64,000 bases of DNA, from contig CAZOVD010000002.1 of NCBI GenBank assembly GCA_964583285.1, positions 2,940 through 66,939 of the forward strand, given 5' to 3'. Made by a program: the position numbers and the translations under genes. Shown here one piece after another: positions 34,463 through 62,420 of the stretch; the stretch's first letter is position 1, and each line of letters begins with the position of its first letter. The notes under the pieces were generated by a model. That model was not told the origin of the DNA, made no database searches, and saw only the letters and a list, made by a program, of their open reading frames with translations. Origin of the DNA: an uncultured archaeon (lineage in GTDB: Archaea > Iainarchaeota > Iainarchaeia > Iainarchaeales > JAAZKV01).

Positions 34463-34483
34463 AAAAAGGTTTTTAAATATATG
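34463..34483 (-). promoter_or_regulatory. early-type promoter motif
   Basis: The - strand reads CATATATTTAAAAACCTTTTT, with the box 43 nt upstream of ATG 34426. Confidence 0.55.
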
Positions 34484-34934
34484 TTTTGGAGTTAGTTCCA
34501 TTATTTATTTCATCATTAAATATCTCAATAGCTTCATAAATAGAATATTCTTTATTTTTCTTTTTAGACATATTATCAATATAATTTTTTATACCTTGAA
34601 TATCAAAAAAGTCTGAAACAATACCGGATTTAATTAGTTTCTTTACAAACGCACTATAAGTAATAAAGGAATTAAAATCTTCACTAAAATGTGTTTTCCA
34701 AATAGTATATCCTATTTTTCGCCCATATGATTTAGGTAAAGTACTTTTTGACCTAAAAACTTTACGCCTAACAAAATCAGTTTTTCTATTTAAAGAAAAA
34801 TCTAAATCATCTATCCTTTGTTGTCTTAATTCATCATTTCTACATTTTCTACAAATCTTTTTTGCTATTAAAACAGAATTAACTTTGGCACCGCATCTTC
34901 TACAAATCTTCTTCTCCACGTTGTTTCGCCTCAT
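34473..34934 (-). CDS. zinc-ribbon protein
   Basis: N-terminal 'CRRCGAKV...CRKCRN'; 153 aa. Confidence 0.45.
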   Translation of the reverse strand: MRRNNVEKKICRRCGAKVNSVLIAKKICRKCRNDELRQQRIDDLDFSLNRKTDFVRRKVFRSKSTLPKSYGRKIGYTIWKTHFSEDFNSFITYSAFVKKLIKSGIVSDFFDIQGIKNYIDNMSKKKNKEYSIYEAIEIFNDEINNGTNSKTYI

Positions 34935-35799
34935 AAACTTTTTTCATAAAATCAGCATACTCCATAATGCAATCTTCTATCTTAAATTCATTTAAAATAA
35001 TCTGTCTATTTTGTTCTCTTAACCACTTATTATTCCTACTATCATCAATAACAGAAAACATTGTTTGTTCACAAAAAAGTGATTGTGGTGGCAATATTTC
35101 TTTAGCACCTCCACCAGCAATAGAAGCTACAGGCATACCACATGCCATAATTTCAAGTAATAAATTAGGCATACAATTTTGATAATCTAGATGCACAACA
35201 ATATTGCATTTATTTAAAAGCGCAAATAATTCATCTGCGGTAGAAAATTTTTCTATAAATACAATATTGTCTGCGCCATAATGCTCTGTTAAAGATTTAA
35301 TAGCTTCATATTCAAATGGGAGAAGACTTTTTTTAATAATACCAATTTTATCTCCAGAATGATTAATCTTTCTTGGATTATAAAAATTAGTATCAACACC
35401 ATTAAAAATAATTTTTGAAGCAAAATGCTCTTGTTTACTAACATACTTCTTGTATCCTTTCTTACTATAATATGATTGATATATTATACCATCAGCTTCA
35501 TCATAATGCCACTTTAAAGATTCATTCATACTAGCATAGTTATTTTCATAACCTTTCACATATGGTTTAAAAACACCATTTACTCTATTAATAAAAACAC
35601 CATTATTCATTCTACAAGCGAGTACTTCATCATTTGTAAGCCAGTTATTTAAACCAAAAACAATATCTGCAATTCTTGGATTATCAACAACTTCAAAATA
35701 TTTTCTAATTTCTCTATTAAAATATTGCATAAAGGTTTTTGGGCCACCTGCAAGTTTTTCTATTCTATCAACTGGGTAGTATAATTTGTATTTTTTCAT
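34900..35799 (-). CDS. glycosyltransferase (GT-B, family 1/4-like)
   Basis: C-terminal 'NLLLEIMACGMPVASIAGGGAKEIL' fits the GT1 nucleotide-sugar-binding motif. Confidence 0.6.
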   Translation of the reverse strand: MKKYKLYYPVDRIEKLAGGPKTFMQYFNREIRKYFEVVDNPRIADIVFGLNNWLTNDEVLACRMNNGVFINRVNGVFKPYVKGYENNYASMNESLKWHYDEADGIIYQSYYSKKGYKKYVSKQEHFASKIIFNGVDTNFYNPRKINHSGDKIGIIKKSLLPFEYEAIKSLTEHYGADNIVFIEKFSTADELFALLNKCNIVVHLDYQNCMPNLLLEIMACGMPVASIAGGGAKEILPPQSLFCEQTMFSVIDDSRNNKWLREQNRQIILNEFKIEDCIMEYADFMKKVYEAKQRGEEDL

Positions 35800-36140
35800 A
35801 ATATTCTCCTCATTCTTTTTCTTGTCATACTTAAATATTTATTCTTATCTTTTAAAGTAGCAAAAAATTTCTTTTCGCATAAAGAACATTTTAAATACTC
35901 TACTTTTTGCTTACGAGCTCTTAACGTTATTTCTAACGAACATTGATGTGTATTATGCCAACCTTTTGCGCAATATTTTTTTATTTTTTGTAAATAAAAA
36001 AAATATTCTGTCTTCTGTTCAATAATAAATAAGCCTGATTTATATTTAAAACATTCAAAAGCGAAGATTAAATCCCATTTAAAATTTCGGAATAGGCTAA
36101 TTAATCTTCGCTTCTTACTATCCGATTTCGTAAGTTTCAT
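35796..36140 (-). CDS. Cys-rich hypothetical protein
   Basis: 114 aa, basic, with 'CSLCEKK'; ATGA-coupled. Confidence 0.4.
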   Translation of the reverse strand: MKLTKSDSKKRRLISLFRNFKWDLIFAFECFKYKSGLFIIEQKTEYFFYLQKIKKYCAKGWHNTHQCSLEITLRARKQKVEYLKCSLCEKKFFATLKDKNKYLSMTRKRMRRIL

Positions 36141-36466
36141 ATTTTATCAACAACCTTTTTTGCTTTATCTATTTTTTTATTATTTTGTTTTTGAACCCAG
36201 TTTTGATATTGTTTTAATAATTTGTCTCTTTTAAATTTATAATCTTTTTTAGCAATGCAATTATTTTGTTTTAATAGAATAAGAGCAATAGCTTTATTTT
36301 TTAAATATTGCGGGTGCTCACACAAAAAAGAATATGCAGAATATTCTGCCAAATCATATAAGTCATTACATTTATCGCATCTGCCTTTATATTTAGATTG
36401 TGTTCCGCAATAACAATACACCCATCTTTCAACGGCTTGTGTCTTAAAAATATCCCAAATACTCAT
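36137..36466 (-). CDS. Cys-rich hypothetical protein
   Basis: 'YCYCGTQSKYKGRCDKCND' is zinc-binding-like. Confidence 0.4.
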   Translation of the reverse strand: MSIWDIFKTQAVERWVYCYCGTQSKYKGRCDKCNDLYDLAEYSAYSFLCEHPQYLKNKAIALILLKQNNCIAKKDYKFKRDKLLKQYQNWVQKQNNKKIDKAKKVVDKI

Positions 36467-36651
36467 TTCTTCACCTTCAATTTTTTCATAGTTGATTTTT
36501 TTATTCCTCTATCAATTAATCCTTTATATCCAAACAATTTATGTTTTATAATGTCTAATATATCTTTCCACTCATATTTAAAATAAGTAGGAACCATTAA
36601 TGTTCTTCTTTTTGTATAATATGATTTAGATTCCTTATCAATTATTTTCAT
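36463..36651 (-). CDS. hypothetical protein
   Basis: 62 aa, basic, ATGA-coupled. Confidence 0.4.
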   Translation of the reverse strand: MKIIDKESKSYYTKRRTLMVPTYFKYEWKDILDIIKHKLFGYKGLIDRGIKKSTMKKLKVKK

Positions 36652-36656
36652 TTTTC

Positions 36657-36863
36657 TTACCCCTCATAATCTAACATTTCTTCATTAATTTCAAAACCAT
36701 TTTTAGCATGATAAATTAATGTCTTAACTTCTTCCTGAGTTAATCTACAAATTACATCACCTAATTCCAAAAAATATTCACCATTAAAACAATGTTTCCA
36801 AACATGGAAATATGTTGGCTCACCTGACTTTTTTCCACTTAATATTGTACATTTTACACTCAT
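36657..36863 (-). CDS. hypothetical protein
   Basis: 68 aa, ATGA overlap upstream. Confidence 0.4.
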   Translation of the reverse strand: MSVKCTILSGKKSGEPTYFHVWKHCFNGEYFLELGDVICRLTQEEVKTLIYHAKNGFEINEEMLDYEG

Positions 36864-37360
36864 TTCTTAATCACTTCCTTTTTATAAATACAAATATTTG
36901 TGTCTGGGTTCTTTGGGTTTCCTTCTTTATAATGTTCTACCCTTTTTAATTCCTTAAATAAATAATCAATAGCAAACTCTGTCATCCGCCAATAATCTTT
37001 TGGATAATCATGATAAATATGATGAAAAGGTACACTAAAAAATAATATTCCATTATCTTCTAATAAATTAACTACGTTTTTTGCAGCAGTAAAAATATCA
37101 TCCACATGTTCAAAAGTTTCAGTACAAATAATACAATCAAATTTTTCTTGTGGTAATGTTTCAACTTTAGTAATATCTCCTTTTTGGTCCACATATGGTC
37201 CATTAACCAAATCAATTGCCAAATATTTTTGTGTTTTAATAAACGTTCTTGGGTCAGCAAATCTTCCTTGATGACAGTCATATGCACCAATATTAAGTGT
37301 TGATTTAAAAGAATGCTTGCTAGCAAATCTATATAAATGATACATTATAAATTCTTTCAC
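36860..37360 (-). CDS. class I SAM-dependent methyltransferase
   Basis: 'YLAIDL' (motif I-like) and 'FDCIICTETFEHVDD...ILFFSVP', typical of the Methyltransf_11 type. Confidence 0.55.
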   Translation of the reverse strand: MKEFIMYHLYRFASKHSFKSTLNIGAYDCHQGRFADPRTFIKTQKYLAIDLVNGPYVDQKGDITKVETLPQEKFDCIICTETFEHVDDIFTAAKNVVNLLEDNGILFFSVPFHHIYHDYPKDYWRMTEFAIDYLFKELKRVEHYKEGNPKNPDTNICIYKKEVIKK

Positions 37361-37707
37361 TCGCTCACCTTTTTAAATGCTAATTTAATTTCTTCTTGCG
37401 CTATCAATCTAATATAATTTCTTAAATTTTCTAATGTAAGAGCACCTTCATTATAAGGTAAATTATTTTCTTTAAAAATCTTCTCCAATTTATCAATATT
37501 TTTATTTAATCGTTTGATGTCTTTAAAAATAGAATTAGTCACTTGTAATTGTTTTTTGTTTAATTGTTTTTTATGTTCTTTATAATCAAAACAACCAAAA
37601 TATTCTTGTGATTTATATTTATTACAAACCTTTTCTAATAAATCCCATTTTTCATGAACTTGTTTTTTCAATTTATTATGCTCATCAATTAATTCTAACA
37701 TTCCCAT
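37357..37707 (-). CDS. hypothetical coiled-coil protein
   Basis: 116 aa with SD 'tggaagtgattaaATG'. Confidence 0.45.
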   Translation of the reverse strand: MGMLELIDEHNKLKKQVHEKWDLLEKVCNKYKSQEYFGCFDYKEHKKQLNKKQLQVTNSIFKDIKRLNKNIDKLEKIFKENNLPYNEGALTLENLRNYIRLIAQEEIKLAFKKVSE

Positions 37708-37736
37708 TTAATCACTTCCATAATAAAATATTTAAT

Positions 37737-37758
37737 AAAAATATTTTTAAATATATTG
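37737..37758 (-). promoter_or_regulatory. early-type promoter motif
   Basis: The - strand reads CAATATATTTAAAAATATTTTT, about 42 nt upstream of ATG 37707. Confidence 0.55.
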
Positions 37759-37759
37759 T

Positions 37760-37921
37760 CTATTCTTCTAAATTATTTTTACAATTTGAACATACTGCTA
37801 CAACTAATCCTTCTGCATCAATTGAAAGAGTTACATCAGAACCATCTTCAATATCTTCTGCACAAAGATAGCATTTTGGTACTTCTTCTTTTAATAATTT
37901 AATTCCTTTAATTGCTATCAT
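37760..37921 (-). CDS. zinc-ribbon mini-protein (53 aa)
   Basis: MIAIKG...CYLCAED...CSNCKNNLEE. ATGA overlap upstream. Below the track threshold. Confidence 0.4.
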   Translation of the reverse strand: MIAIKGIKLLKEEVPKCYLCAEDIEDGSDVTLSIDAEGLVVAVCSNCKNNLEE

Positions 37922-38082
37922 TCCTTATCACCATCCAATGTACAATTTTTATGCACTAAAAATAAAGCTCCTTTATTATTTGGAACAGCTCTAACTTCTG
38001 TACCAATACTTATATATTTCTTGCAAATAAAACATTTACATTTTGTTTGATTCTTTTGTAATGTTACAAGTAAATTACCCAT
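37918..38082 (-). CDS. Cys-rich mini-protein (54 aa)
   Basis: MGNLLVTLQKNQTKCKCFICKKY...HKNCTLDG. Start overlaps the upstream stop (TGATG). Confidence 0.4.
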   Translation of the reverse strand: MGNLLVTLQKNQTKCKCFICKKYISIGTEVRAVPNNKGALFLVHKNCTLDGDKE

Positions 38083-38948
38083 CACTTCACCTCAATTAAT
38101 AATCCTGTATCTAAAGCATTCTTTGTTATCTCATCTATATAATCAGGCAATCTTTTTACTTGACCTTTCATAATAAAGAACTTTGGTTCTTGCCCGTTAC
38201 CCCAGTAATCATTTCTGCACTTTACAAATGTTGTCTTTTCAAGTTTTATAAAACCTTTTTTATAAGGAGTCTGGTCTTCAGTCCTAAGATGCTTTGTCCA
38301 TAATCTTGGAAGAACATAAACATTTATACCTGCTTTTTTCAAATCAATATACCAATATGTATCTGGAGCAGCATTTAGAGCTTCGTGAATATTTTCTTCT
38401 TTCTTTAATCTAAAAGGTATTTTATCAAGTACAGTTCTATTAATTAATACACAACCATGACCAACTCCCCAAACTTGCTGAGGATTATCTGGCATTAATT
38501 CAATGTCTTTTGCATTTAGTACTTGCTCTGTTTTATAATCATGCACACAAACTACACCAAGATTAGCATCAAGTAAATATGGAGCACCAACTACATCTAA
38601 TTTAGTCTCAACTAATTTTTCCAAAGTTTCTGGCTGTGGTATTTGGTCAGCTTCAAGAAACCAAGCACAATCATATTGAATATTGCTAGCAATATATTTT
38701 CGGGCCACGTTATATGCTTCTAATAATACTTCATTAATATTTGGGCCAGATTTAATATTTACTACTCCACCATACTTTAAAAGTTTTCCTCTAAAATCTC
38801 CATGCTCTTCTGGAGAACTATCTATAAATAATATATCAAATTCTTTATAAGTCTGTTTTTTTAGAGCAGCAATATATTCCAATAAGTATTTCTCCATCTT
38901 ATAGTATGTTGCACATACTACTAATACTTTTGGAATACTACTTGCCAA
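38082..38948 (-). CDS. glycosyltransferase-like protein (GT-A/family 2-like)
   Basis: N-terminal 'KVLVVCATYYKMEKYLLEYIAALKKQTYKEFDILFIDSS' resembles a GT2 Rossmann start; 'FLEADQ' is DxD-like. Confidence 0.45.
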   Translation of the reverse strand: MASSIPKVLVVCATYYKMEKYLLEYIAALKKQTYKEFDILFIDSSPEEHGDFRGKLLKYGGVVNIKSGPNINEVLLEAYNVARKYIASNIQYDCAWFLEADQIPQPETLEKLVETKLDVVGAPYLLDANLGVVCVHDYKTEQVLNAKDIELMPDNPQQVWGVGHGCVLINRTVLDKIPFRLKKEENIHEALNAAPDTYWYIDLKKAGINVYVLPRLWTKHLRTEDQTPYKKGFIKLEKTTFVKCRNDYWGNGQEPKFFIMKGQVKRLPDYIDEITKNALDTGLLIEVK

Positions 38949-39297
38949 GATACCACTCTACTAATTTTCTATAAAGATTTGCTTTTTCTCCAATTAGAGT
39001 GGCTTTATCTGGATTTTTCTTTTGCATCTTAATTAATTTTTCTTCAAGAGCAATAAATACTTTATTATCTAAATGAAATCCTTCAAGCCTTGTTTTAACA
39101 TCTTCTTTATAAGATTGTTCTTTAAGCAAATCAATATCTAGTTTACCATCAATGTACTCTTTTACAAGTTGAGCCAATTTCTTATTCTTACTCATTCTAC
39201 GTTCGCCTTCTTGTACTTTTTCCGCAACGGCTTTTTGTTCAAACTTTATAATATCGTCTTCTGATACTACAAAACTTGTCATTCTTTTTTCACTCAT
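38938..39297 (-). CDS. hypothetical protein behind a long structured leader
   Basis: 119 aa with SD 'aaaaaggagaaattagtATG'. Confidence 0.5.
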   Translation of the reverse strand: MSEKRMTSFVVSEDDIIKFEQKAVAEKVQEGERRMSKNKKLAQLVKEYIDGKLDIDLLKEQSYKEDVKTRLEGFHLDNKVFIALEEKLIKMQKKNPDKATLIGEKANLYRKLVEWYLGK

Positions 39298-39322
39298 ACT
39301 AATTTCTCCTTTTTTATTGGGG

Positions 39323-39413
39323 GTGATTAGGAAGGAACAAACTTAATTGCTCCTTCCAATGAATCACATTGTTTGTTTATTTGGTTCGTATTACCGGCAC
39401 CCAACTAGTGCCG
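39323..39413 (-). promoter_or_regulatory. structured GC-rich 5' leader (two hairpins)
   Basis: Hairpin 39395-39413: CGGCAC/GTGCCG with a 7-nt loop. Long hairpin 39323-39367: GUGAUU/AAUCAC plus a 9-bp GGAAGGAGC/GUUCCUUCC stem. Confidence 0.4.
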
Positions 39414-39448
39414 ATTCTTACTTACTCTTTAACATATATATTAAATAT

Positions 39449-39469
39449 AAAAATATTTTTAAATATATG
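39449..39469 (-). promoter_or_regulatory. early-type promoter motif
   Basis: The - strand reads CATATATTTAAAAATATTTTT. The next ATG (39297) is about 160 nt downstream. Confidence 0.5.
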
Positions 39470-39471
39470 TT

Positions 39472-39810
39472 TTATTGGTAAATAAATCTTAATACTGCAT
39501 CATTATCATTTTTACTTAATTCCTCTTTCATTAATTTCATTACTTCTTTTATTTGTGCAATACTTAATTGTTTTTTCTTTCCTTCTTTTTTAGCAATAGC
39601 TTTTGCTAAATCATTGAAATCAATTTTCAATTTAGTTTTTTGATATATACCAATATCATTTTGATTTATTACTATTTCTCCATTTCCAAGATACAGCATT
39701 GGTGTTTTCAATTCCTTGTGCCCATATCTAACGGGATTTGTTGATACCACAACATCAACATAGTTATGTCTTCCTTCAATTTTTTTTATTAATAGATTTC
39801 CTACTATCAT
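39472..39810 (-). CDS. hypothetical protein
   Basis: 112 aa with SD 'aaaggagatgaaataaaATG'. Confidence 0.5.
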   Translation of the reverse strand: MIVGNLLIKKIEGRHNYVDVVVSTNPVRYGHKELKTPMLYLGNGEIVINQNDIGIYQKTKLKIDFNDLAKAIAKKEGKKKQLSIAQIKEVMKLMKEELSKNDNDAVLRFIYQ

Positions 39811-39825
39811 TTTATTTCATCTCCT

Positions 39826-40095
39826 TTACTTTTTATAATATGCTTCTCTTAATTTTCTATTAATTTCAACTACTCGTTTATTATAGTCCTTTAGTTCTTT
39901 TATTTGTTTCTGTATTTTCTTTTTTTCTTCAACTGTTTGAAGCAATGTTTTCCATATAGTTCTTTTTTCTGCTCCTTCAATTTGAAAATTAAAAAAGTCA
40001 GCTTCAGTAGATTTTTGGTCTTCAGTAGGTTCTAATTTTTTTGCCTCCATCTCACCAAAAATTTCATCTGCTATTTCTCCATTATCTTTTTCCAT
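39826..40095 (-). CDS. hypothetical acidic protein
   Basis: ATG 40095 follows 'aggaagtgataaaa'. The track start 40104 is a GTG inside the SD. Confidence 0.5.
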   Translation of the reverse strand: MEKDNGEIADEIFGEMEAKKLEPTEDQKSTEADFFNFQIEGAEKRTIWKTLLQTVEEKKKIQKQIKELKDYNKRVVEINRKLREAYYKK

Positions 40096-40124
40096 TTTTA
40101 TCACTTCCTAATATAATTATTAAC

Positions 40125-40145
40125 AAAAACCTTTTTAAATATATT
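40125..40145 (-). promoter_or_regulatory. early-type promoter motif
   Basis: The - strand reads AATATATTTAAAAAGGTTTTT, overlapping the stop of 40145-40414. Confidence 0.55.
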
Positions 40146-40414
40146 TATTCGGCTTCTTCAGTATCAAACGTCGCTGACCTTAACGCTTTTAAATAGCACT
40201 TTCTAGAGCAATATTTATTATTATGAATTAATTGCTTCTTTGTAAACGAGCCACCACATACTTGACATTTATCATATTTTGGTATAGGAGCAAGTTTAGC
40301 ACAATCTTCGCAAACAGGCTTCTTTCTAATACAAATTTTATATTGTATTGGCTTTTGACGACCACAAATAGGGCATGTTTTTCTAGTTATTTTATCACCT
40401 TTATTTTTCTCCAA
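40145..40414 (-). CDS. double zinc-ribbon protein
   Basis: 'CPICGRQ...CEDC' and 'CQVCGG...CSRKC'. Confidence 0.45.
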   Translation of the reverse strand: MEKNKGDKITRKTCPICGRQKPIQYKICIRKKPVCEDCAKLAPIPKYDKCQVCGGSFTKKQLIHNNKYCSRKCYLKALRSATFDTEEAE

Positions 40415-40602
40415 TCTTCAAGCCATTCATCTTTAATCATACCCATTGTTTTTTTAAGTTCATCATAATCAATTATTTTTACACGACACCTACAGAAAAA
40501 TTGTATTAATTGTTTTTTATTATCAAGTATCATTGGTTTTTTATCTACAAGTGAATTACATTTAGGACAAACATAATACTTTCCATTTTTAATCAAATTC
40601 AT
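40387..40602 (-). CDS. zinc-ribbon protein
   Basis: ATG 40602 in ATGA overlap with the upstream stop. 'MNLIKNGKYYVCPKCNS...FFCRC'. Confidence 0.45.
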   Translation of the reverse strand: MNLIKNGKYYVCPKCNSLVDKKPMILDNKKQLIQFFCRCRVKIIDYDELKKTMGMIKDEWLEDWRKIKVIK

Positions 40603-40934
40603 TTTTTTATCACTTTTCTTTGTTCCCAAATATCATCTAAGATATCTTGATATTCAAAAACTTTTTTTGGCTTTTGGTTTAATTCCTTTAATCTTTTTCT
40701 ACAATCTTTCATATGACCTTTTAAACTATTGATATCTGTAAAGTAATCTGTGTATGGAAAAAGATTACAATTCTGTAACATTGCTCCAGTATCATTATCT
40801 ATATAAATTACTCCATAAATTGTAGCATTATAGACTAAAGCTTTTTCTATTTTAACAAGACCAAGCTTTTTTAGTATTCTTTCAAATAATTTATTTGATT
40901 CTATTTTCATAATATTAATATATCCACTTCTCAT
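40599..40934 (-). CDS. hypothetical protein
   Basis: 111 aa, co-oriented. Confidence 0.45.
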   Translation of the reverse strand: MRSGYINIMKIESNKLFERILKKLGLVKIEKALVYNATIYGVIYIDNDTGAMLQNCNLFPYTDYFTDINSLKGHMKDCRKRLKELNQKPKKVFEYQDILDDIWEQRKVIKK

Positions 40935-40942
40935 TTATTTTT

Positions 40943-41374: not shown

Positions 41375-41598
41375 TAGAAATATCCCTCCTCATCAATTAT
41401 TTCAAAATCGGTTCGTGGAATTTCAATATATTCAAATTCCACATCCTTTCCTTGAAATGCTTTTTTCCATTCTTCTTTGGTTCCTACTGGGCCAACGCCA
41501 TCTAATTGCCATTCTTTATTTTCTTCTGAGGTATCAGCTGCTCCCCAACTTACTCTTTCTAATCTTACTTTTACTACCATTATATCACAGCCTTTCAT
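41374..41598 (-). CDS. hypothetical protein, leaderless candidate
   Basis: ATG 41598 lies exactly 22 nt after the early TATA-like box with no SD. The track start 41652 would include the promoter. Confidence 0.45.
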   Translation of the reverse strand: MKGCDIMVVKVRLERVSWGAADTSEENKEWQLDGVGPVGTKEEWKKAFQGKDVEFEYIEIPRTDFEIIDEEGYF

Positions 41599-41613
41599 AA
41601 TAATTATATACAT

Positions 41614-41634
41614 AAAAACCTTTTTAAATATATT
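41614..41634 (-). promoter_or_regulatory. early-type promoter motif
   Basis: The - strand reads AATATATTTAAAAAGGTTTTT, with 22 nt between the box and ATG 41598. Confidence 0.6.
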
Positions 41635-42100
41635 GTTTAGGTTTTTTACCATTATTTACTCGCCTATCAGGATATTTTTTTATATCTTCCTGGGCCATTA
41701 AATCTAATTTTTTATACATTGCTAAATTATTGGCATAAAGTAATTTAATAACATTCTGTCTAATATAATTATGCTGATATTGTGCAGTATGATAATTCCA
41801 TGTTTCTTGTTCAGTTAATTCTTTATATACTCTATCAAATATTGCTTGAAAATAATTAGGATATTTCTCTTTTAATAAACTATATATTCTATTTCTAATT
41901 GCTTGCCGTCTTTTTATTATATCATATTTATGAACTTTTTGGGCCAATGGTAATAAATCAGCAAAGACCATTCTTGGGCCACGGCGCTTTTTTATTTCTT
42001 CAACAGCTTTTCTTCGGTCCTGAGGTGTTTTAAAATAAGCCTGGGAAGAAACTGTTTCATTCCATTGCTTATATTTATCATCCCATCGTTTCTTAATCAT
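41624..42100 (-). CDS. hypothetical basic protein, leaderless candidate
   Basis: 158 aa. ATG 42100 lies 22 nt after the box with no SD. Confidence 0.5.
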   Translation of the reverse strand: MIKKRWDDKYKQWNETVSSQAYFKTPQDRRKAVEEIKKRRGPRMVFADLLPLAQKVHKYDIIKRRQAIRNRIYSLLKEKYPNYFQAIFDRVYKELTEQETWNYHTAQYQHNYIRQNVIKLLYANNLAMYKKLDLMAQEDIKKYPDRRVNNGKKPKQYI

Positions 42101-42115
42101 AAAATATTCTTGTAT

Positions 42116-42136
42116 AAAAACCTTTTTAAATATATT
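42116..42136. promoter_or_regulatory. bidirectional early-type promoter
   Basis: aaaaacctttttaaatatatt sits between divergent genes. It is 22 nt from ATG 42100 on the - strand. On the + strand, TTTAAATATA lies about 40 nt from ATG 42171, which has an SD. Confidence 0.55.
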
Positions 42137-42170
42137 GTAACATTATTTTATTATAAAGGAGTGATTTATC

Positions 42171-43007
42171 ATGCATGAAAAATTTGAAAATCTACAGGAG
42201 TTATCTGTTCTACTAGAAAAAACAGACCAAGCAGAAATCAGACCTATCAATGATAAAAATAATATTGATATTCCTGAATTCGTACAAATATATAATATAC
42301 AAAAAGACCATACAGAAAATATTGTTCCAAAAACAAAGGGCGGAGTAATAAACCATAAAGATGCGTTTGAACCTTTTGTTAATGCCTTGGAGCAACAACA
42401 AACAACTGATTACTTTGGTTTCTTTCACAATCATGGTGGAAGAGTTTCAGCTGAAGTTTTCTTTAAAAATGTTGTAATAAAAGACGATTCTGATAATGGA
42501 GTATATCTTGGTTTCAAATTTACCAATGATTATTCACGCCAATCATTTTTTGGAGAAATGTTTGGTTACAGAAGCTTTTGTTCAAATGGTATGGCCCTTG
42601 GAAAATCTACTTTAGGTAATTTTTCAAAAAACCATAAATCTATTAGTGGGCTTGAAAAAGAACTTTTAAGCTATATTGACCACGGCCTTTCTAAAACACA
42701 GTTTTTGGAAGAATCTATTCAAAAAGCTATTGAGGATAAATTAATTTCCGAAGAAGATGCACTTAAGGTTCTTATTGGTGCAGGAATTAGAGAAAAGACT
42801 GGAAAGAAGATTTTAGAGCTTTTAGAAGTTCCTGATGTATTTTCGCGTTATGCTCTTTATAACGGAATTACAGCACATGCTACTCATAATATTAGCGGTG
42901 AATATATCAAATCTTATTATCAAGGTATAGCACAAAAGATTCTTGTAACAGATTCTAATAGATTAGTTCGTGGACAAACTAAAGCAGAATTAAATAACGA
43001 CTTTTAA
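42171..43007 (+). CDS. DUF932-like phage/plasmid protein
   Basis: 'FGYRSFCSNGMALG' resembles the conserved core of DUF932; 278 aa with SD 'aaaggagtgatttatc'. Confidence 0.4.
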   Translation: MHEKFENLQELSVLLEKTDQAEIRPINDKNNIDIPEFVQIYNIQKDHTENIVPKTKGGVINHKDAFEPFVNALEQQQTTDYFGFFHNHGGRVSAEVFFKNVVIKDDSDNGVYLGFKFTNDYSRQSFFGEMFGYRSFCSNGMALGKSTLGNFSKNHKSISGLEKELLSYIDHGLSKTQFLEESIQKAIEDKLISEEDALKVLIGAGIREKTGKKILELLEVPDVFSRYALYNGITAHATHNISGEYIKSYYQGIAQKILVTDSNRLVRGQTKAELNNDF

Positions 43008-43046
43008 AACAAATTGGGCCAGTAGTGGCCCATTCTGTTTTTTGTA

Positions 43047-43733
43047 TTATTGTATATTTACTTTACATAGATATTCTGTTTTGTTATCTTCTTTTTTTAT
43101 AAATACTATTTTCCCCATTTTAGTTAATTCTGCAACTGTATTAATAATTGAATTATGGCCGTAGCCAGTTTTTAATTTTAAAATTTCATATATTTCAGTT
43201 TTTGTTTTATCAATAAGTTCTGGTGTGCTTTGAAAAATTGCTCCTATTTGTCCGAATAATTTTTTATTTTTAATATTTTTCATATCATATTCTGGAACAG
43301 AGTAAATTTGTATATTATTTCCTAAATTATAGACATCTAGAACTTCTCTTAATATACTCATTGATTTTAACATATACTGTATTAAAGATTTGCAAAAAAT
43401 ATTATTATCTAATAAGTCTATATAAGTGATTTTTTCTACAGGTATTATATTTGATTTTTCGCCTAATGTTGCTATTATGCCTTCAACAGTAAATGAGTCA
43501 TACTTTTGCTGTACTAAATCCATATATTCATACAATTGCTCAATTGCTGGCATTTTATTATTTATTTTTAGTTCAATTACTTTTATTTTTTTATTAAGTT
43601 TATCTATATATAATAAATCTATTCTTTTATTATTGATTTTATATTCTGAAAGTAATTGAGTATATTCATTGCTTTTTTTATCAAAAATTTCATTTGACAT
43701 TATTATTTGTTTTATTATTTGTTCACTTATCAT
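43047..43733 (-). CDS. PD-(D/E)xK nuclease-like N-domain plus winged-helix C-domain protein
   Basis: 'RIDLLYID...IKVIELK' (D...ExK). C-terminal 'EIYEILKLKTGYGHNSIINTVAELTKMGKIV' is HTH-like. Confidence 0.35.
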   Translation of the reverse strand: MISEQIIKQIIMSNEIFDKKSNEYTQLLSEYKINNKRIDLLYIDKLNKKIKVIELKINNKMPAIEQLYEYMDLVQQKYDSFTVEGIIATLGEKSNIIPVEKITYIDLLDNNIFCKSLIQYMLKSMSILREVLDVYNLGNNIQIYSVPEYDMKNIKNKKLFGQIGAIFQSTPELIDKTKTEIYEILKLKTGYGHNSIINTVAELTKMGKIVFIKKEDNKTEYLCKVNIQ

Positions 43734-43837
43734 TATATCACCTTATTAATTTATTTTTAAAATATGTTTATAAAAATATGTTTAAAATAATGATTTAAAA
43801 TTATTATTTTAGATAGTACATAAAATAATGATTCTAA

Positions 43838-43857
43838 GAGAAAACCAAGGTTTTCTC
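43838..43857. repeat. perfect 9-bp palindrome (operator candidate)
   Basis: GAGAAAACC aa GGTTTTCTC. Extends to 12 bp per arm with one mismatch (43835-43860). Confidence 0.6.
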
Positions 43858-44006
43858 CTATTTTATTATATATTAATTCATATATTTATTAATTTATATA
43901 TATTATTATATATTATAGATATAGATAGAGAGATATATATATAGGTAAGGATAGTTAAATATATATATAGTAATAGTTTTAGTAAAATAATAAAAATGTA
44001 AGTAAT

Positions 44007-44090
44007 CATATGATTTACACCATTTAAATGCAGAATCCGCGATTAAACAAATAAAAATATTAGCTACATATGGTTTTACACTATTTAAAT
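44007..44090. repeat. two 23/24-nt direct repeats, 60 bp apart
   Basis: CATATGATTTACACCATTTAAAT (44007-44029) and CATATGGTTTTACACTATTTAAAT (44067-44090). Confidence 0.6.
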
Positions 44091-44171
44091 AGGTTTTAGC
44101 GTTTTTTCCCCCAAAAAAATTTTTCAGTTTTGCTTAAAATCATTGTTTTACTACTAAAAAAACAAATAAAC

Positions 44172-44246
44172 AAGTATAAAAAAATGAGCAAATTTTTATA
44201 CTTAATTATAAATTTCTGAACAAATTTTTATACCTAAGTATAAAAA
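44172..44246. repeat. four copies of the 9-mer GTATAAAAA in alternating orientation
   Basis: Copies at 44174-82 (forward), 44193-201 (reverse), 44225-33 (reverse) and 44238-46 (forward). The 13-mer CAAATTTTTATAC repeats at 44189 and 44221. Confidence 0.6.
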
Positions 44247-44251
44247 AATAC

Positions 44252-44264
44252 ATATATTTTTAAA
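44252..44264 (+). promoter_or_regulatory. early-type promoter variant
   Basis: ATATATTTTTAAA. The box ends 22 nt before ATG 44287, which has no SD. Confidence 0.5.
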
Positions 44265-44286
44265 CACAACCTATAATAAAATTAAT

Positions 44287-44958
44287 ATGGAAAAACAAAA
44301 ATTAATACCTGTATCAAATGCGTTACACACCAAGTTAAAAGAATCAAAAGGTAAACTGACATTTGAAGAATACATACAAACAAATTTATCTCCAAAAAAG
44401 GTTCAATTATTTGAACAAATGTCAAAAAAATTCAATGAATTATTCTATTTATATGATATTGACAGAACAGATGATTTTGAACAAGATTATTTGGCTCTTT
44501 TAAAATGCTTAAAATTTAGCGACCAAAAACAAGTAAAAGTACAAACAATAAAACAAATTGAAAAAACCAAAAAAGAAGAACCTGAACCATTAGAAATAAA
44601 ATACTATTTAGAACTACCTGTCTCAAAACCAAAGTATCTGGCATGGCTTGAAACACTTACATTTGAAGAAATAAAGAAAACATTGACATTGCCTCCGGCC
44701 TCAGAAGTTCCAGATGCAAAAGACTTAAGAATAATAAATGATGAAGAAAACATTATTGCACGCGACAAATATATTCTGGATTGGCCGAGTGAGGATAAAA
44801 TATTATTATTAAATATTTATAATAAAATAAATGATGCAGCAGAAGATTCTTTGCATTTAGTTAAAACAACTAATGAAGAAAAAGAACTGTTACTAAAATT
44901 ACCAAGTGAATGTTTAACATTTAAACTAGATTATTGGAAAGATATTAACAAAAAATAA
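44287..44958 (+). CDS. hypothetical protein, first gene of the rightward block (leaderless candidate)
   Basis: 223 aa with no SD upstream ('cctataataaaattaatATG'). Confidence 0.55.
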   Translation: MEKQKLIPVSNALHTKLKESKGKLTFEEYIQTNLSPKKVQLFEQMSKKFNELFYLYDIDRTDDFEQDYLALLKCLKFSDQKQVKVQTIKQIEKTKKEEPEPLEIKYYLELPVSKPKYLAWLETLTFEEIKKTLTLPPASEVPDAKDLRIINDEENIIARDKYILDWPSEDKILLLNIYNKINDAAEDSLHLVKTTNEEKELLLKLPSECLTFKLDYWKDINKK

Positions 44959-44975
44959 ATATATTTAAAAAGGTT
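44957..44975 (+). promoter_or_regulatory. early-type promoter motif
   Basis: AAATATATTTAAAAAGGTT. The box ends 24 nt before ATG 44996. Confidence 0.55.
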
Positions 44976-44995
44976 ATTGGTAATTAATTTTATTT

Positions 44996-45175
44996 ATGCA
45001 TGAAAGAAGTGAAAAAATAAGAATAAAAAATTTTTTGCAAGAGCTGGTGCAACAGACTACACCTGTTTTTAAATCACTTCCTTTCATGCAAAAGTTGATT
45101 AAAAAGCAACAAGTAGTCTATGCGGGTTCAATTCCCGCATCTTGCGTTAAAGGTGATTTAAATGGGACTGTTTGA
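44996..45175 (+). CDS. 59-aa ORF (leaderless candidate), or a non-coding transcript
   Basis: MHERSEKIRIKNFLQELVQQ... is one codon below the track threshold. It overlaps the next gene by 14 nt and contains the tRNA-like element, so coding status is uncertain. Confidence 0.3.
   Translation: MHERSEKIRIKNFLQELVQQTTPVFKSLPFMQKLIKKQQVVYAGSIPASCVKGDLNGTV
45113..45146 (+). other. tRNA 3'-half-like element (anticodon-stem 3' strand, T-arm, acceptor 3' strand)
   Basis: GTAGTC-TAT-GCGGG-TTCAATT-CCCGC-ATCTTGC-G. A perfect T-arm with a TTCAATT loop. Complementary GCAAGA (45037-42) and GACTAC (45055-60) lie upstream, but there is no D-arm or valid anticodon loop. Confidence 0.4.
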
Positions 45176-46832: not shown

Positions 46833-46860
46833 ATTTAATTTATAAAGGAGTGATTTAATT

Positions 46861-48851: not shown

Positions 48852-49072
48852 TTGATTTAGATTTAGACGCAGGTGTTTATTGTTCAATAACAGGAAAAAG
48901 AATTACAGGTAGTCAATTTGTTGATTTTTATACAGATAAAAATGGTAATTTAAAAATCAAATTAAAAACCGCAGTAGTTCCAAAAATGACAGAAGAAGGG
49001 TTCGCTGAGGAACCTGTTAATCTAAAAGATGAAATTATAAAGCATATTGACGAATATGAAGAGGAACAATAA
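48848..49072 (+). CDS. hypothetical protein
   Basis: 74 aa, ATGA-coupled. Confidence 0.45.
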   Translation: MIDLDLDAGVYCSITGKRITGSQFVDFYTDKNGNLKIKLKTAVVPKMTEEGFAEEPVNLKDEIIKHIDEYEEEQ

Positions 49073-49090
49073 ATATATTTAAAAATGTTT
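49071..49090 (+). promoter_or_regulatory. early-type promoter motif
   Basis: AAATATATTTAAAAATGTTT, with the box 45 nt upstream of ATG 49131 (SD 'gaaagggagatgat'). Confidence 0.55.
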
Positions 49091-49130
49091 TGGACTAAAA
49101 AATAATATATTGAAAGGGAGATGATTAAAT

Positions 49131-51369: not shown

Positions 51370-51390
51370 CATTATATTTAAAAAGGTTTT
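51370..51390 (+). promoter_or_regulatory. early-type promoter motif in front of the deazaguanine operon
   Basis: CATTATATTTAAAAAGGTTTT, with the box 39 nt upstream of ATG 51424 (SD 'aaaggagtgattat'). Confidence 0.6.
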
Positions 51391-51423
51391 GTTAAAATAA
51401 TATATTATGAAAGGAGTGATTAT

Positions 51424-52628: not shown

Positions 52629-52630
52629 TT

Positions 52631-55055: not shown

Positions 55056-55067
55056 GAGTGATTTAAA

Positions 55068-55547: not shown

Positions 55548-55556
55548 AGTGATATT

Positions 55557-57202: not shown

Positions 57203-57216
57203 GGAGGGGATTTGAG

Positions 57217-59127: not shown

Positions 59128-59942
59128 TGCCAAAATTATGGAATTCAATTAGAATAGAAATGTACAATAAACTTCTTGATAAAAATATTGAAGAAAAAGT
59201 ATTATATGATATTATGAACCATGCAAGTTATCTTGGTTTGCAAAACATTGTTTTAGATAATATTAATATAAATTGTTTTTCAAAATTTAATTTTAATACA
59301 ATTATTTCATATGTAAAGAAAAAAGAATTAAGTATAAAATTAATATTTACTGATTTTATTAGTGAAGGATTAATGAAACAATATATTCAAGAATATAATG
59401 ATATATGTTTTATTCGCACACAAAGTAATGAAGGTTTAGATTTATTTAAAAATATTATTTTTGAAATTTCAACTAATAATTTAAATTTAAATTATGAGAA
59501 AGTATTTATTGATTTTAAAAATAATAAGAAAAAAATATGGTTAGAAATTGTTAATTATTATGATAAGAATCAAGAAACATTTTGGTGCGGGGGAGAAAGA
59601 ATTGCTGGAAATGGATTTAGTATAAATGATAGAAGTAGAATTAAATCTATTATTCGTTCTGCAAAGAAACATAATATCCAAAACTTTGACTATTTATTGA
59701 AAGCTGATACTTATGGTATTACGCAAAATTTTAACTGTAAGTATTTATTATTACCTACTGTTAAAATTGATGGAAGTATTTGGAATTGTAAACAAAGACC
59801 ATTTATAAAACCTATATCATTCTTAGATATAAAACCGAGAGAAGAAAATGTATTATCAGGACTATTAATTAATACTAGCAAAAATTGTACTGGATGTTGG
59901 CAACCAGAATTATTTGGAGGTATTACCAATGAAATTAGATAG
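59118..59942 (+). CDS. radical-SAM/SPASM-like protein lacking the CxxxCxxC cluster
   Basis: C-terminal 'LLLPTVKIDGSIWNCKQ...NCTGCW' is SPASM/twitch-like. No N-terminal Cys triad. Confidence 0.3.
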   Translation: MVLMPKLWNSIRIEMYNKLLDKNIEEKVLYDIMNHASYLGLQNIVLDNININCFSKFNFNTIISYVKKKELSIKLIFTDFISEGLMKQYIQEYNDICFIRTQSNEGLDLFKNIIFEISTNNLNLNYEKVFIDFKNNKKKIWLEIVNYYDKNQETFWCGGERIAGNGFSINDRSRIKSIIRSAKKHNIQNFDYLLKADTYGITQNFNCKYLLLPTVKIDGSIWNCKQRPFIKPISFLDIKPREENVLSGLLINTSKNCTGCWQPELFGGITNEIR

Positions 59943-60675
59943 AGTTCATTCTTATTCAAGTTTATCTTCTTATGAATGGTGTAAACAAAAATATAAATAT
60001 TCATATATTGATAAGTTAGATTCAGGAGTCAAATCTCCACACCTTATTAAAGGTGGAGATATACATGAATTATTTCAAAATTATTACAAAGGGTTTGAAG
60101 GAAAGATAACAAAAGAAAATATTGATAAACAGAGATTATTAATTCCTACTCATATGTATTTAAAATATAAATCTCATATAGATAATTTTTTTGCATTTAA
60201 CAAAAGAATTTTTGAATCAATTCATCAAGATGAGTTAGGAACAAAATTTCTTCCAATATGCGTTGAAGAAGAATTTGTTGATGAAATGTATAATATAAAA
60301 GGATTTATTGATGCTGTATATGAAGATAATAATGGAAATATTGTTATTCTTGATTTTAAAACTGGCAAATATCCTAAAGATAATAAAATAAGCGCGTCAT
60401 ATCAAAAACAGTTATACATTTATGTTCATTTATGGAATTTGCATCATCCTGATAAACCTGCTAAATTTATTGCACATTTTTACACTATTAAAGAACCAGA
60501 TAAAAATAATCCAATAATACTAAAAGTTGATAGTAATAAATTAAATGAAACCCGAAAATGGATTATAGATACACAAAAGAAAATTAATAATGGTGAATTT
60601 ACAAAATGCTCAGACTTATATAAATGTAAAAAATGCGAATTTTATATGAATTGTTATGGCGGTGTAATTTGGTAA
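59914..60675 (+). CDS. Cas4/RecB-like PD-(D/E)xK exonuclease with 4-Cys cluster
   Basis: 'IDAVYED...VILDFKTGK' and 'SYQKQLYIY' (QxxxY). Cys at 'YEWCKQ' plus 'CSDLYKCKKCEFYMNC'. Confidence 0.75.
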   Translation: MEVLPMKLDRVHSYSSLSSYEWCKQKYKYSYIDKLDSGVKSPHLIKGGDIHELFQNYYKGFEGKITKENIDKQRLLIPTHMYLKYKSHIDNFFAFNKRIFESIHQDELGTKFLPICVEEEFVDEMYNIKGFIDAVYEDNNGNIVILDFKTGKYPKDNKISASYQKQLYIYVHLWNLHHPDKPAKFIAHFYTIKEPDKNNPIILKVDSNKLNETRKWIIDTQKKINNGEFTKCSDLYKCKKCEFYMNCYGGVIW

Positions 60676-60690
60676 TATATATTTAAAAAT
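60675..60690 (+). promoter_or_regulatory. early-type promoter motif
   Basis: ATATATATTTAAAAAT, with the box 42 nt upstream of ATG 60732 (SD 'gaaaggaagtaat'). Confidence 0.5.
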
Positions 60691-60731
60691 ATTTATATAT
60701 TTTATTTATATTATGAAAGGAAGTAATTTAA

Positions 60732-61769
60732 ATGGTTGAAATTCTAAATAAATTATATAATAGATTTCCAAGACAGATAGGTATCCCGTATAGATATACT
60801 TTCAATAATTATGCTGAATTTTATAATTTTATTAATAGAAAAAAATTTCATCATAGAATATATGCGTCTTTATATAATTATACTGGCGATGATGTAATTG
60901 ACAAAAAGAATCTAATGGTAGATAAAATATTTTTTGATTTGGACAATGATAAATGTTTTGAAAATGTTAAATTACTACATGAAAAAGCAATGAAAAATAA
61001 TTATAAACATTGTATCTTTTTTAGTGGTGGAGGATTTCATTTTTATATTTTTACAAAAAATTATGAAAAATTAAAAAATAAAAAAGATGCTTTATTTAAT
61101 GCACAACAATTTATTGCAAAAAATACTAGTTTAAAAATTGGTGAAGCACATGAATATGATTTAGATGAAAAAATAATTGGAGATATTGCAAGAATAGCAA
61201 CTGTTCCATTTACATATAATCATAAACGAAAAAGGTTTTGTATAGGTGTTAGTGAAGAAATGCTTAATACTAGTTATAAAGATATTAAAGAACAAGCAAA
61301 ACAACAAATATTTAAATCATATGTATATGGAACAGATTTATTTGATATATCTAAATTTGATACAGAAAGACCAATACATATTAAAGAATTTGAAATAACA
61401 AAAGATTTACAGATAGAAATTGATTCAGATTCCATGTTAAAAGAATTACCACCTTGTGCTATTAATTGGTTAAAACAACCACATGTAGGATATAAAAAAC
61501 GCGGTTATATTATTATGTTACTAAGGGATAAAGGATATTTATTAGAAGAAACCGAAGAATTTTTAAAAAGACATTTACAACCAGCAGAATTTATACACTG
61601 TTGTACAAGACAATTTGCTCCAGGTTATAATGAACCAGGAGAAAATCAACATGTATATCTTTATAATAATAGAAAAACAGTATTTCCTAATTGTAGTACT
61701 TTAAAGTTTTTAGGAGAATGTGTTTGCCCTGATAAAGAAAAATGCAAAGAGGTTGATTTTTATAAATAA
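60732..61769 (+). CDS. archaeo-eukaryotic primase (PriS-like) fused to a PriL-CTD-like Cys-rich domain
   Basis: AEP motifs 'KIFFDLDND', 'FFSGGGFHFYIF' and 'DIARIATVPFTYNHK'. C-terminal 'LPPCAINWL' plus 'HCCTRQF' and 'CSTLKFLGECVCPDKEKC'. Confidence 0.75.
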   Translation: MVEILNKLYNRFPRQIGIPYRYTFNNYAEFYNFINRKKFHHRIYASLYNYTGDDVIDKKNLMVDKIFFDLDNDKCFENVKLLHEKAMKNNYKHCIFFSGGGFHFYIFTKNYEKLKNKKDALFNAQQFIAKNTSLKIGEAHEYDLDEKIIGDIARIATVPFTYNHKRKRFCIGVSEEMLNTSYKDIKEQAKQQIFKSYVYGTDLFDISKFDTERPIHIKEFEITKDLQIEIDSDSMLKELPPCAINWLKQPHVGYKKRGYIIMLLRDKGYLLEETEEFLKRHLQPAEFIHCCTRQFAPGYNEPGENQHVYLYNNRKTVFPNCSTLKFLGECVCPDKEKCKEVDFYK

Positions 61770-62412
61770 ATTACAAGTAGATAATAGAGAAGATAAGGTA
61801 TCAAAAAAAATATTTACATATCTAGACGATGCTAAAATTGAATATGAAGTAGCTCAATTAACTATAGGAGATTATAGACTGCCAAATGGAGAAATTGTAG
61901 AGAGAAAATCTTTAATGGATTTTGTTCAAAGTTATATTAATCATCATCTACAAAATCAGCTTGATTCTATGGATTTAAATTTAGAAAGATATTATGTATT
62001 TATTTCAGGAAAATATAATTATTTTGATTTTCAAAATAGAAATCTGCCATATATTACTGAAAATGTTATTTCAAAAATGTGTTTGCATCTGTTACAAAAC
62101 TATCCTAAATTAAGAATAGTTTATTTCCCTAATGATAAAGCATTAATAGAAATAGGAATAAAAGAATTATTAACATATGAAGGACAGAGATTTAAAGAAA
62201 CTTATATTAAAAAACAACAGCGCAAAGAGGATATTGTTGCAAGTATGCTTACTTGCATTCCTGGTGTAGGATTAAAAAGAGCAACAGAAATTGTTGCTGT
62301 ATGTCCAACATTAGATAATTTGCGGATTTCAATTGCAGAAAGAAACCCAGATTTATTTAATATTAAAGGAATTAGTGAAAAAAAATTATTGGAGATTTTA
62401 ACATATATTTAA
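61720..62412 (+). CDS. XPF/Mus81/Hef-family (ERCC4) structure-specific nuclease with HhH
   Basis: 'VDNRE', 'GDYRLPNGEIVERKSLMDFVQS' (GDxnERKx3D) and 'IPGVGLKRATEIV'. Start overlaps the primase by 50 nt. Confidence 0.75.
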   Translation: MFALIKKNAKRLIFINKLQVDNREDKVSKKIFTYLDDAKIEYEVAQLTIGDYRLPNGEIVERKSLMDFVQSYINHHLQNQLDSMDLNLERYYVFISGKYNYFDFQNRNLPYITENVISKMCLHLLQNYPKLRIVYFPNDKALIEIGIKELLTYEGQRFKETYIKKQQRKEDIVASMLTCIPGVGLKRATEIVAVCPTLDNLRISIAERNPDLFNIKGISEKKLLEILTYI

Positions 62413-62420
62413 AAATATTT
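62401..62420 (+). promoter_or_regulatory. early-type promoter motif
   Basis: ACATATATTTAAAAATATTT overlaps the XPF stop. The box is 36 nt upstream of TTG 62452 (SD 'ggaagtgatta'). Confidence 0.5.

Follow-up and report, generated by a model that had tools for sequence, protein, structure and literature searches.

The window analyzed here, the whole 64-kb stretch C2:2940-66939, lies on the contig C2, a tailed-virus genome of 69 kb and 28% GC that was binned with an archaeon (996 kb in all; 927 kb in contigs other than C2). Its packaging and structural genes encode TerS-like and TerL proteins as well as portal, MuF-like, protease, and HK97 capsid proteins that were named by homology to annotated relatives, whereas its replication block encodes a 556-aa primase/helicase-like protein, an AAA_24 protein, a PCNA-like protein, an RFC small subunit, and PolB. 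Further genes encode a PD-(D/E)XK nuclease, an ERCC4 nuclease, an SNF2 helicase, an endonuclease-V-like glycosylase, several glycosyltransferases, an AbrB-like protein, and many small Zn-ribbon proteins. The AbrB-like gene lies at C2:170-310, and the Zn-ribbon ORFs include 33839-33979, 37760-38082, and 40145-40602. Within the region of replication and DNA-modification genes, a repeat of 19 to 25 bases built around the TATA box TTTAAAAA occurs in 12 copies. We read these repeats as probable archaeal core promoters belonging to one of two sequence classes in this virus.

The repeat family is genuine. Searching the window for ATATATTTAAAAAKRTTTT with up to two mismatches yielded 13 matches, compared with a mean of 0.48 and a maximum of 3 in dinucleotide-preserving shuffles of the same sequence. 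A 31-nt weight matrix built on the repeat copies and run over the whole 996-kb assembly recovered 12 sites scoring 21 to 35 bits, all 12 of them on C2 and one just beyond the window, at C2:2485; the best site elsewhere reached 18.6 bits. The sites inside the window are 34464, 37738, 39450, 40126, 41615, and 42117 on the minus strand and 44959, 49073, 51372, 60677, and 62403 on the plus strand. A preliminary description of this DNA had listed 12 sites, 11 of which correspond to these within 1 to 2 nt. The twelfth, a putative variant at 44252, does not belong to the family, as it falls below the matrix threshold and its TATA box sits in the third unit of a 32-nt tandem repeat. Two additional pattern matches with two mismatches each, 59440 within a gene and 57377 in the intergenic stretch ahead of PolB, seem to be either accidental or degenerate copies. 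Each of the 12 matrix copies is intergenic or lies on the stop codon of the preceding gene (chance about 2e-13, given an intergenic share of 8.8% on C2), and each is co-oriented with its downstream gene (chance 2e-4). The repeats are thus not equally frequent inside genes in random orientation; the family is at once multicopy, restricted to the virus, intergenic, and aligned with the genes that follow it.

The consensus of a copy reads A(C/A)ATATA-TTTAAAAA-(GG/TA/CC/TG)-TTTT(T)-AT, followed by about 12 variable AT-rich nucleotides, (T)ATT|A(TG), GAAAGGAGTGAT, and the start codon. All 12 copies have an identical 8-bp TATA box, which conforms to TTTAWAWA. Exactly 22 nt after it stands an A in 8 of the 12, with a T at -1 in 11, and an ATG begins at 22 nt, filling +1 to +3, in 7 copies and at 23, 24, and 20 nt in one copy each. 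The fixed spacing between box and ATG that had been described earlier is therefore real and more general than was proposed. The A5 of the TATA box, the two-nucleotide centre, and the following T5 form a dyad, A5-N2-T5, that overlaps the box; this is a new, virus-specific detail of the family, and of 21 copies from C2 and related viruses, 20 have GG, CC, or TA at the centre, in a genome that is 72% A+T. The segment 5' of the box is A(C/A)ATATA in the virus, with A at -7 and -5; the host consensus is weakly A/G-rich at -7 to -5, and relatives vary here. For 11 of the 12 copies, the gene ahead has its stop codon within the motif or 0 to 12 nt before it. The individual sites, named early-type for the genes that they precede, are as follows (SD, Shine-Dalgarno sequence; cassette ATG, the ATG recurring near the predicted +1).

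34447..34484, minus strand: early-type copy with ACATATA, TTTAAAAA at 34477-34470, CC, and T5; predicted +1 at A34447 (cassette ATG), then SD AAGGAAGGTGAT and the real start.
37721..37758, minus strand: early-type copy with TATA box 37751-37744, centre TA, and predicted +1 at A37721; SD GGAAGTGAT, real start 37707.
39433..39470, minus strand: early-type copy with TATA box 39463-39456 and an ATG at 20 nt; a structured leader of ~110 nt, then gene 38938-39297.
40109..40146, minus strand: early-type copy with TATA box 40139-40132, centre GG, and predicted +1 at A40109 (AGGAAGTGAT, no ATG); real start 40095.
41598..41635, minus strand: early-type copy with TATA box 41628-41621 and predicted +1 at A41598 (cassette ATG), in frame with the SD-led ATG 41580.
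42100..42155, both strands: bidirectional copy with the shared palindromic core TTTAAA at 42125-42130.
42130-42123, minus strand: minus side of copy 42117, with TTTAAAAA, 22 nt, and the candidate leaderless ATG 42100 (158-aa gene).
42125-42132, plus strand: plus side of copy 42117, with TTTAAATA, 22 nt, A42155, SD AAGGAGTGAT, and ATG 42171 (278-aa gene, 42171-43007).
44257..44289, plus strand: TATA box outside the family, TTTTTAAA at 44257-44264 in the third 32-nt tandem unit; 22 nt to the candidate leaderless ATG 44287 (223-aa gene, 44287-44958).
44957..44998, plus strand: early-type copy with TATA box 44964-44971 and GGTTAT; ATG 44996 at 24 nt (59-aa open reading frame [ORF], possibly leaderless), then the 556-aa primase/helicase-like gene.
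49071..49111, plus strand: early-type copy with TATA box 49078-49085, centre TG, and predicted +1 near A49109; SD GGGAGATGAT, start 49131 (PCNA-like gene, then RFC small subunit).
51370..51409, plus strand: early-type copy with TATA box 51377-51384 and predicted +1 at A51407 (cassette ATG, out of frame); SD AGGAGTGAT, start 51424 (7-deazaguanine operon).
60675..60715, plus strand: early-type copy with TATA box 60682-60689 and a cassette ATG 23 nt after the box (60713); SD AAGGAAGT, start 60732.
62401..62440, plus strand: early-type copy with TATA box 62408-62415 and predicted +1 at A62438 (cassette ATG); SD GGAAGTGAT, TTG start 62452 (glycosyltransferase-like gene).

The sequence of copy 42117 bears out an earlier suggestion that it works in both directions, since the box, 22-nt interval, A|AAGGAGTGAT, and ATG 42171 on its plus side mirror the arrangement on its minus side. 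Behind copy 39450 (39300-39440, minus strand), the leader, or possibly small RNA, of about 110 nt is relatively GC-rich and folds into two strong hairpins (minimum free energy, -36.9 kcal/mol; z, -3.8), the second of which sequesters GGAAGGAG; it has no Rfam match, and an Rfam scan of the window gave zero matches overall. The copy outside the window occupies C2:2485-2503, on or just after the stop codon of TerL, and an element of the same type has the same position in a second virus lineage (L102:11622).

The same spacing characterizes the archaeal bin. Its 16S rRNA scores 1341 bits with the archaeal small-subunit model and 1070 bits with the bacterial one, and it encodes one TBP and one TFB, whereas C2 encodes neither. 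The TATA box of a canonical archaeal promoter lies at about -30 to -23. Among 801 host ORFs, the starts of TTTAWAWA peak at -30/-29 relative to the ATG (48 genes, compared with 2 to 5 per neighbouring position), a peak that equals a 21- to 22-nt spacer with T-rich sequence just 5' of the ATG. Genome-wide, ATG is enriched 21 to 22 nt after TATA-like boxes, with long ORFs making up the excess, and host tRNA and 16S promoters carry RAAAC/G-TTT(T)AAAAAG at a matching distance. To the nucleotide, the geometry of the viral repeat is that of the host's leaderless promoters. A scan for sigma-70-type sites, with -35 and -10 hexamers 16 to 18 nt apart, found no enrichment (130 versus 129.2 expected), and no repeat copy was among the top sites. 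The reading of the box geometry as that of an archaeal promoter, first advanced in the preliminary description, therefore holds, because host genes and related viruses show the same geometry and element. The flanks, by comparison, are virus-specific: among 1095 host TTTAAAAA sites, ATATA stands before only 1 and KRTTTT after only 7, versus 11 and 9 of the 57 sites on C2. Binning, equal GC content, shared promoter geometry, and GTGAT-centred SDs in both genomes suggest that the binned archaeon is the host of the virus.

Related uncultured viruses carry the element as well. In L086, which is 92% identical at the nucleotide level, three copies of the shared region are unchanged, and a segment that has been replaced begins with a new first gene that again shows a TATA box, 22 nt, and an ATG. 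L102, L107, and L108-110, whose TerL proteins are 56 to 61% identical to that of C2, together hold at least eight copies of (ata)TTTAAAAA-CC-TTTT(T)(g)g, those of L109 and L102 (TerL 61% identical) taking the form ataTTTAAAAAccTTTT(T); in L109, 7 of 20 TTTAAAAA sites are followed by SSTTTT, and all 7 are intergenic. L104 (TerL 50% identical) carries TTTAAAAATATTTTTATA. Three copies in relatives precede orthologues of C2:2560-2931, 38938-39297, and the 39826-40095 operon, with proteins that are 34 to 48% identical. Conservation in relatives extends to the TATA box, SS centre, and T-run but not to the upstream ATATA or the +1 ATG, and the core TTTAAAAA-SS-TTTT is retained in front of orthologous genes. 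Broader searches returned little. An exact-motif scan of IMG/VR found 75 contigs with one match each, as expected by chance in AT-rich viruses, and no multicopy relative; single-sequence searches of the same database with PolB and the 556-aa protein gave no relatives, and blastn against isolate phages gave no match. In 215 genomes of the host phylum, the motif scan returned scattered single matches and no second provirus, the exact matches in G135, G122, and G139 representing a conserved host locus without an Rfam match. A conserved locus that includes ttatacataatATATTTAAAAAGGTTTTgg and matches the viral 19-mer exactly is seen in three other host-family genomes, at L098:7457 (minus), L100:301 (plus), and L099:9297 (plus).

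A second class of repeats is present as well. This late class, of the form TTATATTTATAAATGATAAAAA or TTTATAAA, precedes packaging and structural operons at 6446-33179 and at C2:~100-140; six copies of TTATATTTATAAATGAT(A/T)AAAA stand before the AbrB-TerS-TerL block and the head, tail, and fibre operons with a geometry of 22 to 24 nt, and relatives have ATACATTTATAAATA before their structural genes. Some genes of the late class are putatively leaderless at 24 nt (25764), as is 28621, which has a unique TATA box. The early-type copies precede nonstructural operons for replication, DNA modification, nucleases, and glycosyltransferases, as well as small ORFans. (T)ATATTTAWAAA is common to both classes, which diverge directly after the box, and their division between replication/early and morphogenesis/late regions is found here and in the relatives.

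Taken together, it is probable that the repeats are TBP/TFB-dependent core promoters of this ~69-kb tailed virus, which would use the single TBP, the single TFB, and the RNA polymerase of its host. In this model, each copy would comprise an A-rich segment, A(C/A)ATATA, resembling a TFB recognition element (BRE), the TATA box, a proximal (GG/CC/TA)TTTTT, an AT-rich spacer, and an initiator T|A(TG) at 22 nt. Transcription would begin at the A 22 nt after the box and would yield either a leaderless mRNA (at 42100, 44287, and perhaps 44996) or a leader of 15 to 40 nt that contains a GTGAT-type SD. Because early-type copies head nonstructural operons and late-type copies head structural ones, the two classes most likely separate early/middle from late expression. 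The discriminating segment would lie directly downstream of the TATA box, and with only one TBP and one TFB in the host, discrimination between the classes, if real, would need an accessory factor, viral or host, that could bind there and read this proximal segment.

Start codons could be assigned to several copies with differing confidence. Four ATGs without an SD had been proposed as leaderless starts; two of them stand as candidates, a third perhaps does, and the fourth does not. The only solid candidate is 42100, which lacks an SD, lies at the exact +1 position, and has an N terminus that is conserved in L086 (MIKKRWDDKYK versus MIKRRWDSKHK), the conservation being what makes the candidate solid. 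ATG 44287 is also supported as a candidate, its geometry being retained in the nonhomologous replacement segment of L086. At 44996, the 59-aa ORF is intact in both C2 and L086; its reality is uncertain, and the ATG is perhaps leaderless. The ATG at 41598 is that of the cassette box TATTATGAAAGG, which recurs in copies whose real start follows an SD; the same ATGAAAGG box is out of frame in copy 51372 and is followed by a stop in copy 34464. The ATG at 41598 consequently provides no evidence for a leaderless gene, and since it is in frame with the SD-led ATG 41580, its status is ambiguous. An ATG at the predicted 5' end combined with an SD is found in 1 of 111 host promoters and in none of the relatives, and this layout most simply suggests cassette ancestry. 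For the same reasons, a role for the +1 ATG as a leaderless miniature upstream ORF was set aside. It survives as an add-on of low probability, in which the 5'-terminal AUG of leadered transcripts would recruit ribosomes, as on a leaderless mRNA, to mini-ORFs terminating at the SD-led start.

Several observations weigh against the promoter interpretation or its parts. No CRISPR array was found in the bin, and hence there is no independent link to the host. Among 215 genomes of the host phylum, a related capsid gene was present only in the bin itself (G000) and in none of the 214 others, and searches of sequencing runs for this virus returned DNA runs from activated sludge and no RNA run. One copy in a relative (L109:3831) serves a gene in reverse orientation, and the extended motif thus does not strictly set direction. 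In L102, the early-type element after TerL is followed 45 nt on by only a late-type TATA box and a late gene. The timing implied by the word early derives from gene content and the separate late class. Finally, the copies are paralogous cassettes, four of them including the 3' end of the upstream ORF, so that part of their likeness reflects recent duplication rather than selection.

This last point can be extended into an alternative that we consider possible but doubtful: the repeats may be ordinary strong promoters without class meaning that spread as cassettes and were homogenized by recombination, in which case flanks, dyad, and +1 ATG would be hitchhiking ancestry and no early/late switch would exist. 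In four cases the stop codon lies inside the motif, and the ORFs concerned (34473-34934, 41624-42100, 61720-62412, and TerL at C2:884-2494) all end in (T/Q)YI*, encoded by ACATATATTTAA; two of them also share NNGxxxK(T/Q)YI*, with about 25 further nucleotides alike. Promoter cassettes were therefore copied together with a gene 3' end, and at least the +1 ATG, which is absent from relatives and from leadered host promoters, looks like ancestry. Descent alone fits less well with the retention of TTTAAAAA-SS-TTTT where orthologous proteins are 34 to 61% identical and box-to-start spacers have diverged freely, with the GG, CC, or TA centre kept in an A+T-rich genome, or with the distinct second class that covers structural genes here and in relatives. 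Standing at a similarly tentative level is the idea that the 19-mer serves first of all as an operator, bound by a dimeric repressor or activator that the virus encodes, and simply overlaps a TATA box, in the manner of Aca-type control of archaeal early genes or of the orientation-coupled stoperators that mycobacteriophage L5 reportedly carries. The symmetry of the dyad, the interchange of GG and CC at its centre, and the lack of the flanks in host promoters all agree with such a role, and the need for another factor beside the single host TBP and TFB, the AbrB-like and many small Zn-ribbon proteins of the virus, and the view that SIRV2-type early motifs are regulator bound (PMC11065993) point in the same direction. 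Against it, no regulator was found, the virus yielded neither an integrase nor a repressor, and no protein family matched the first genes of the divergent region; in addition, an A5/T5 tract carries little information in an AT-rich genome, and an operator would complement the promoter reading rather than exclude it. A more specific form of the operator reading seems unlikely, though not negligible: the dyad could be a dedicated operator, conserved in the virus group and absent from host promoters, that is read by a small viral dimeric protein (e.g., AbrB-like or Zn-ribbon) and that, given the single TBP and TFB of the host, would turn the entire TTTAAAAA-class regulon on or off relative to the TTTATAAA-class late one, with the symmetry of the dyad letting a cassette fire either way, as at 42117 and L109:3831.

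Transcript punctuation is a weaker contender, and we think it improbable that the repeats serve mainly this purpose. Archaeal terminators are oligo-T tracts, and the T5 after the TATA box might end the upstream operon, with the next transcript starting 14 nt on. The proximity of upstream stop codons to the motif, the presence of T5 on both strands of the dyad, and the early-type element directly after TerL in two virus lineages are all in keeping with this idea, whereas relatives often have T4 only and the late-class repeats have no sense-strand T-run. Moreover, the sense strand of C2 genes contains 174 runs of T5 or longer, and T5 alone therefore cannot terminate efficiently. Least probable by a wide measure is that C2 is the misbinned phage of an AT-rich bacterium, whose repeats would either be recognized by a phage sigma factor or act as bacterial promoters, TAATAT/TATATT resembling a -10 hexamer and an A/T-rich UP element or substitute standing in for the -35. 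The hexamer at the positions 4 to 9 nt ahead of the conserved ATG can be taken for a -10 element, binning is the only tie to the host, and the HK97-fold matches of the capsid protein among isolates are all bacterial phages, at 24 to 27% identity. Nevertheless, sigma-70-type sites were unenriched, the invariant 8-mer TTTAAAAA, with its TTTAAA, is 20 nt away from TATTAT, a distance too great for a -35 element, and the TATA-22 nt-ATG geometry and the GTGAT-centred SDs are those of the archaeal bin. The gene content also speaks for an archaeal virus: the RFC small subunit is closest to archaeal RFCS (E value, 3e-42, versus 6e-27 for T4 gp44 and 2e-6 for bacterial gamma), and the ERCC4 nuclease and the PCNA-like gene are both of archaeal/eukaryotic type. 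Promoters recognized by the host TBP and TFB remain our preferred explanation.

Other features of these genomes deserve mention. The two ends of C2 (C2:1-140 and C2:68990-69133) share an imperfect repeat of about 130 nt corresponding to the 3' end of a NAD-dependent epimerase/dehydratase gene. A provirus with attachment (att) sites in a host dehydratase gene was considered and rejected, since relatives carry glycosyltransferase/epimerase genes directly before TerS-TerL; because relatives keep this gene order, C2 is better read as a complete, circularly permuted viral genome. Between the putatively leaderless, divergent first genes, an AT-rich, ORF-free region (43830-44265) contains (TA)n/GATA-type repeats and the three 32-nt tandem repeats (44172-44265). 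Conservation in L086 amounts to 80%, an analogous block is present at L109:4800-4900, and the region is a candidate replication origin or control region. Nearby, a gene for a NucS-C-like nuclease (43047-43733, minus strand) is absent from the 92%-identical L086 and therefore reflects a recent insertion or deletion; adjoining it, between convergent genes, is a GC-rich hairpin with T-runs on both sides (43015-43032). In L108-L110, an IS200/IS605 element encoding a Y1 transposase and a TnpB/Cas12f-like protein has inserted in the early region (6072-7651). In the host, short GC-flanked palindromes around CAAAG (e.g., gccaaaggc, ttccaaaggaa, and ctcgcaaagcgag) lie upstream of many tRNA genes (e.g., C1:83392, C10:7555, C45:4436, and C49:4283) and may be a host-wide regulatory or processing motif.

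To our knowledge, almost nothing is known about transcription signals in DPANN archaea and their viruses, and none of these organisms has been cultured. The repeats, together with the host TATA-22 nt-ATG peak, give a promoter model (BRE/TATA, proximal dyad, and initiator) and an operon map for the 69-kb virus, and they suggest a two-class, early/late promoter code common to a group of related uncultured viruses. For annotation, several start codons can be fixed and predicted leaderless genes identified. Several early-type copies precede small ORFans without family matches, and by the logic applied to other archaeal viruses (PMC11065993), these may be flagged as candidates for host takeover or antidefense functions.

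In sum, the family represents an ordinary kind of element in a group of uncultured archaeal (probably DPANN) viruses and not a new kind. The generic archaeal core promoter consists of a BRE, a TATA box centred near -26/-27, an AT-rich proximal element, and a pyrimidine/purine initiator. The viral repeats share with it an 8-bp TATA box, an A-rich upstream segment that is BRE-like, a fixed 22 nt to the T|A step, and putative leaderless ATGs at that distance in both the virus and the binned host; they differ in that the 19-mer is far more conserved than a promoter requires and in that the flanks ATATA and KRTTTTT are essentially absent from host promoters. The differential RNA sequencing study of Haloferax volcanii (PMC4983044) offers an example of such promoters with frequent leaderless mRNAs.

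The closest known elements are those of the tailed archaeal virus HF2, in which class I intergenic repeats in the early/middle region and class II repeats in the late region are both proven promoters with a conserved TATA box and initiator, as determined by reporter assay and primer extension, with a TATA box that starts at -26 and conservation in relatives (PMC8707807). As in our virus, a class of near-identical intergenic repeats (seven in HF2) lies among early/middle replication genes and a second class in the morphogenesis module; each HF2 repeat has a BRE, a TATA box, and a conserved initiator block, and its position and orientation are conserved in related viruses. However, HF2 motifs such as TCTTTAAGTC and CGTCTNNTAGAG are GC-richer, and its alpha, beta, and gamma motif strings quoted in PMC8707807 bear no resemblance to our repeat, which is shorter (about 20 to 45 nt), belongs to the virus of an AT-rich host, probably a DPANN archaeon, has an A5-N2-T5 dyad over the TATA box and a 5'-ATG at the predicted start, and is known from sequence alone. 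We therefore regard the two as analogous and not homologous. SIRV2 and other viruses of the Sulfolobales provide a second parallel, with virus-specific conserved sequences around a common BRE/TATA before early (antidefense) genes (PMC11065993). There, too, many small early genes of low conservation are each preceded by a nearly identical BRE/TATA core set in virus-specific sequence; the flanks vary between viruses, and the core resembles strong host promoters. Those crenarchaeal viruses, however, have rod- or spindle-shaped particles, their expression timing has been measured, and their regulator (Aca8) is known, whereas the repeats described here are drawn from a genome sequence, and several of them head replication and DNA-modification operons rather than small ORFans alone.

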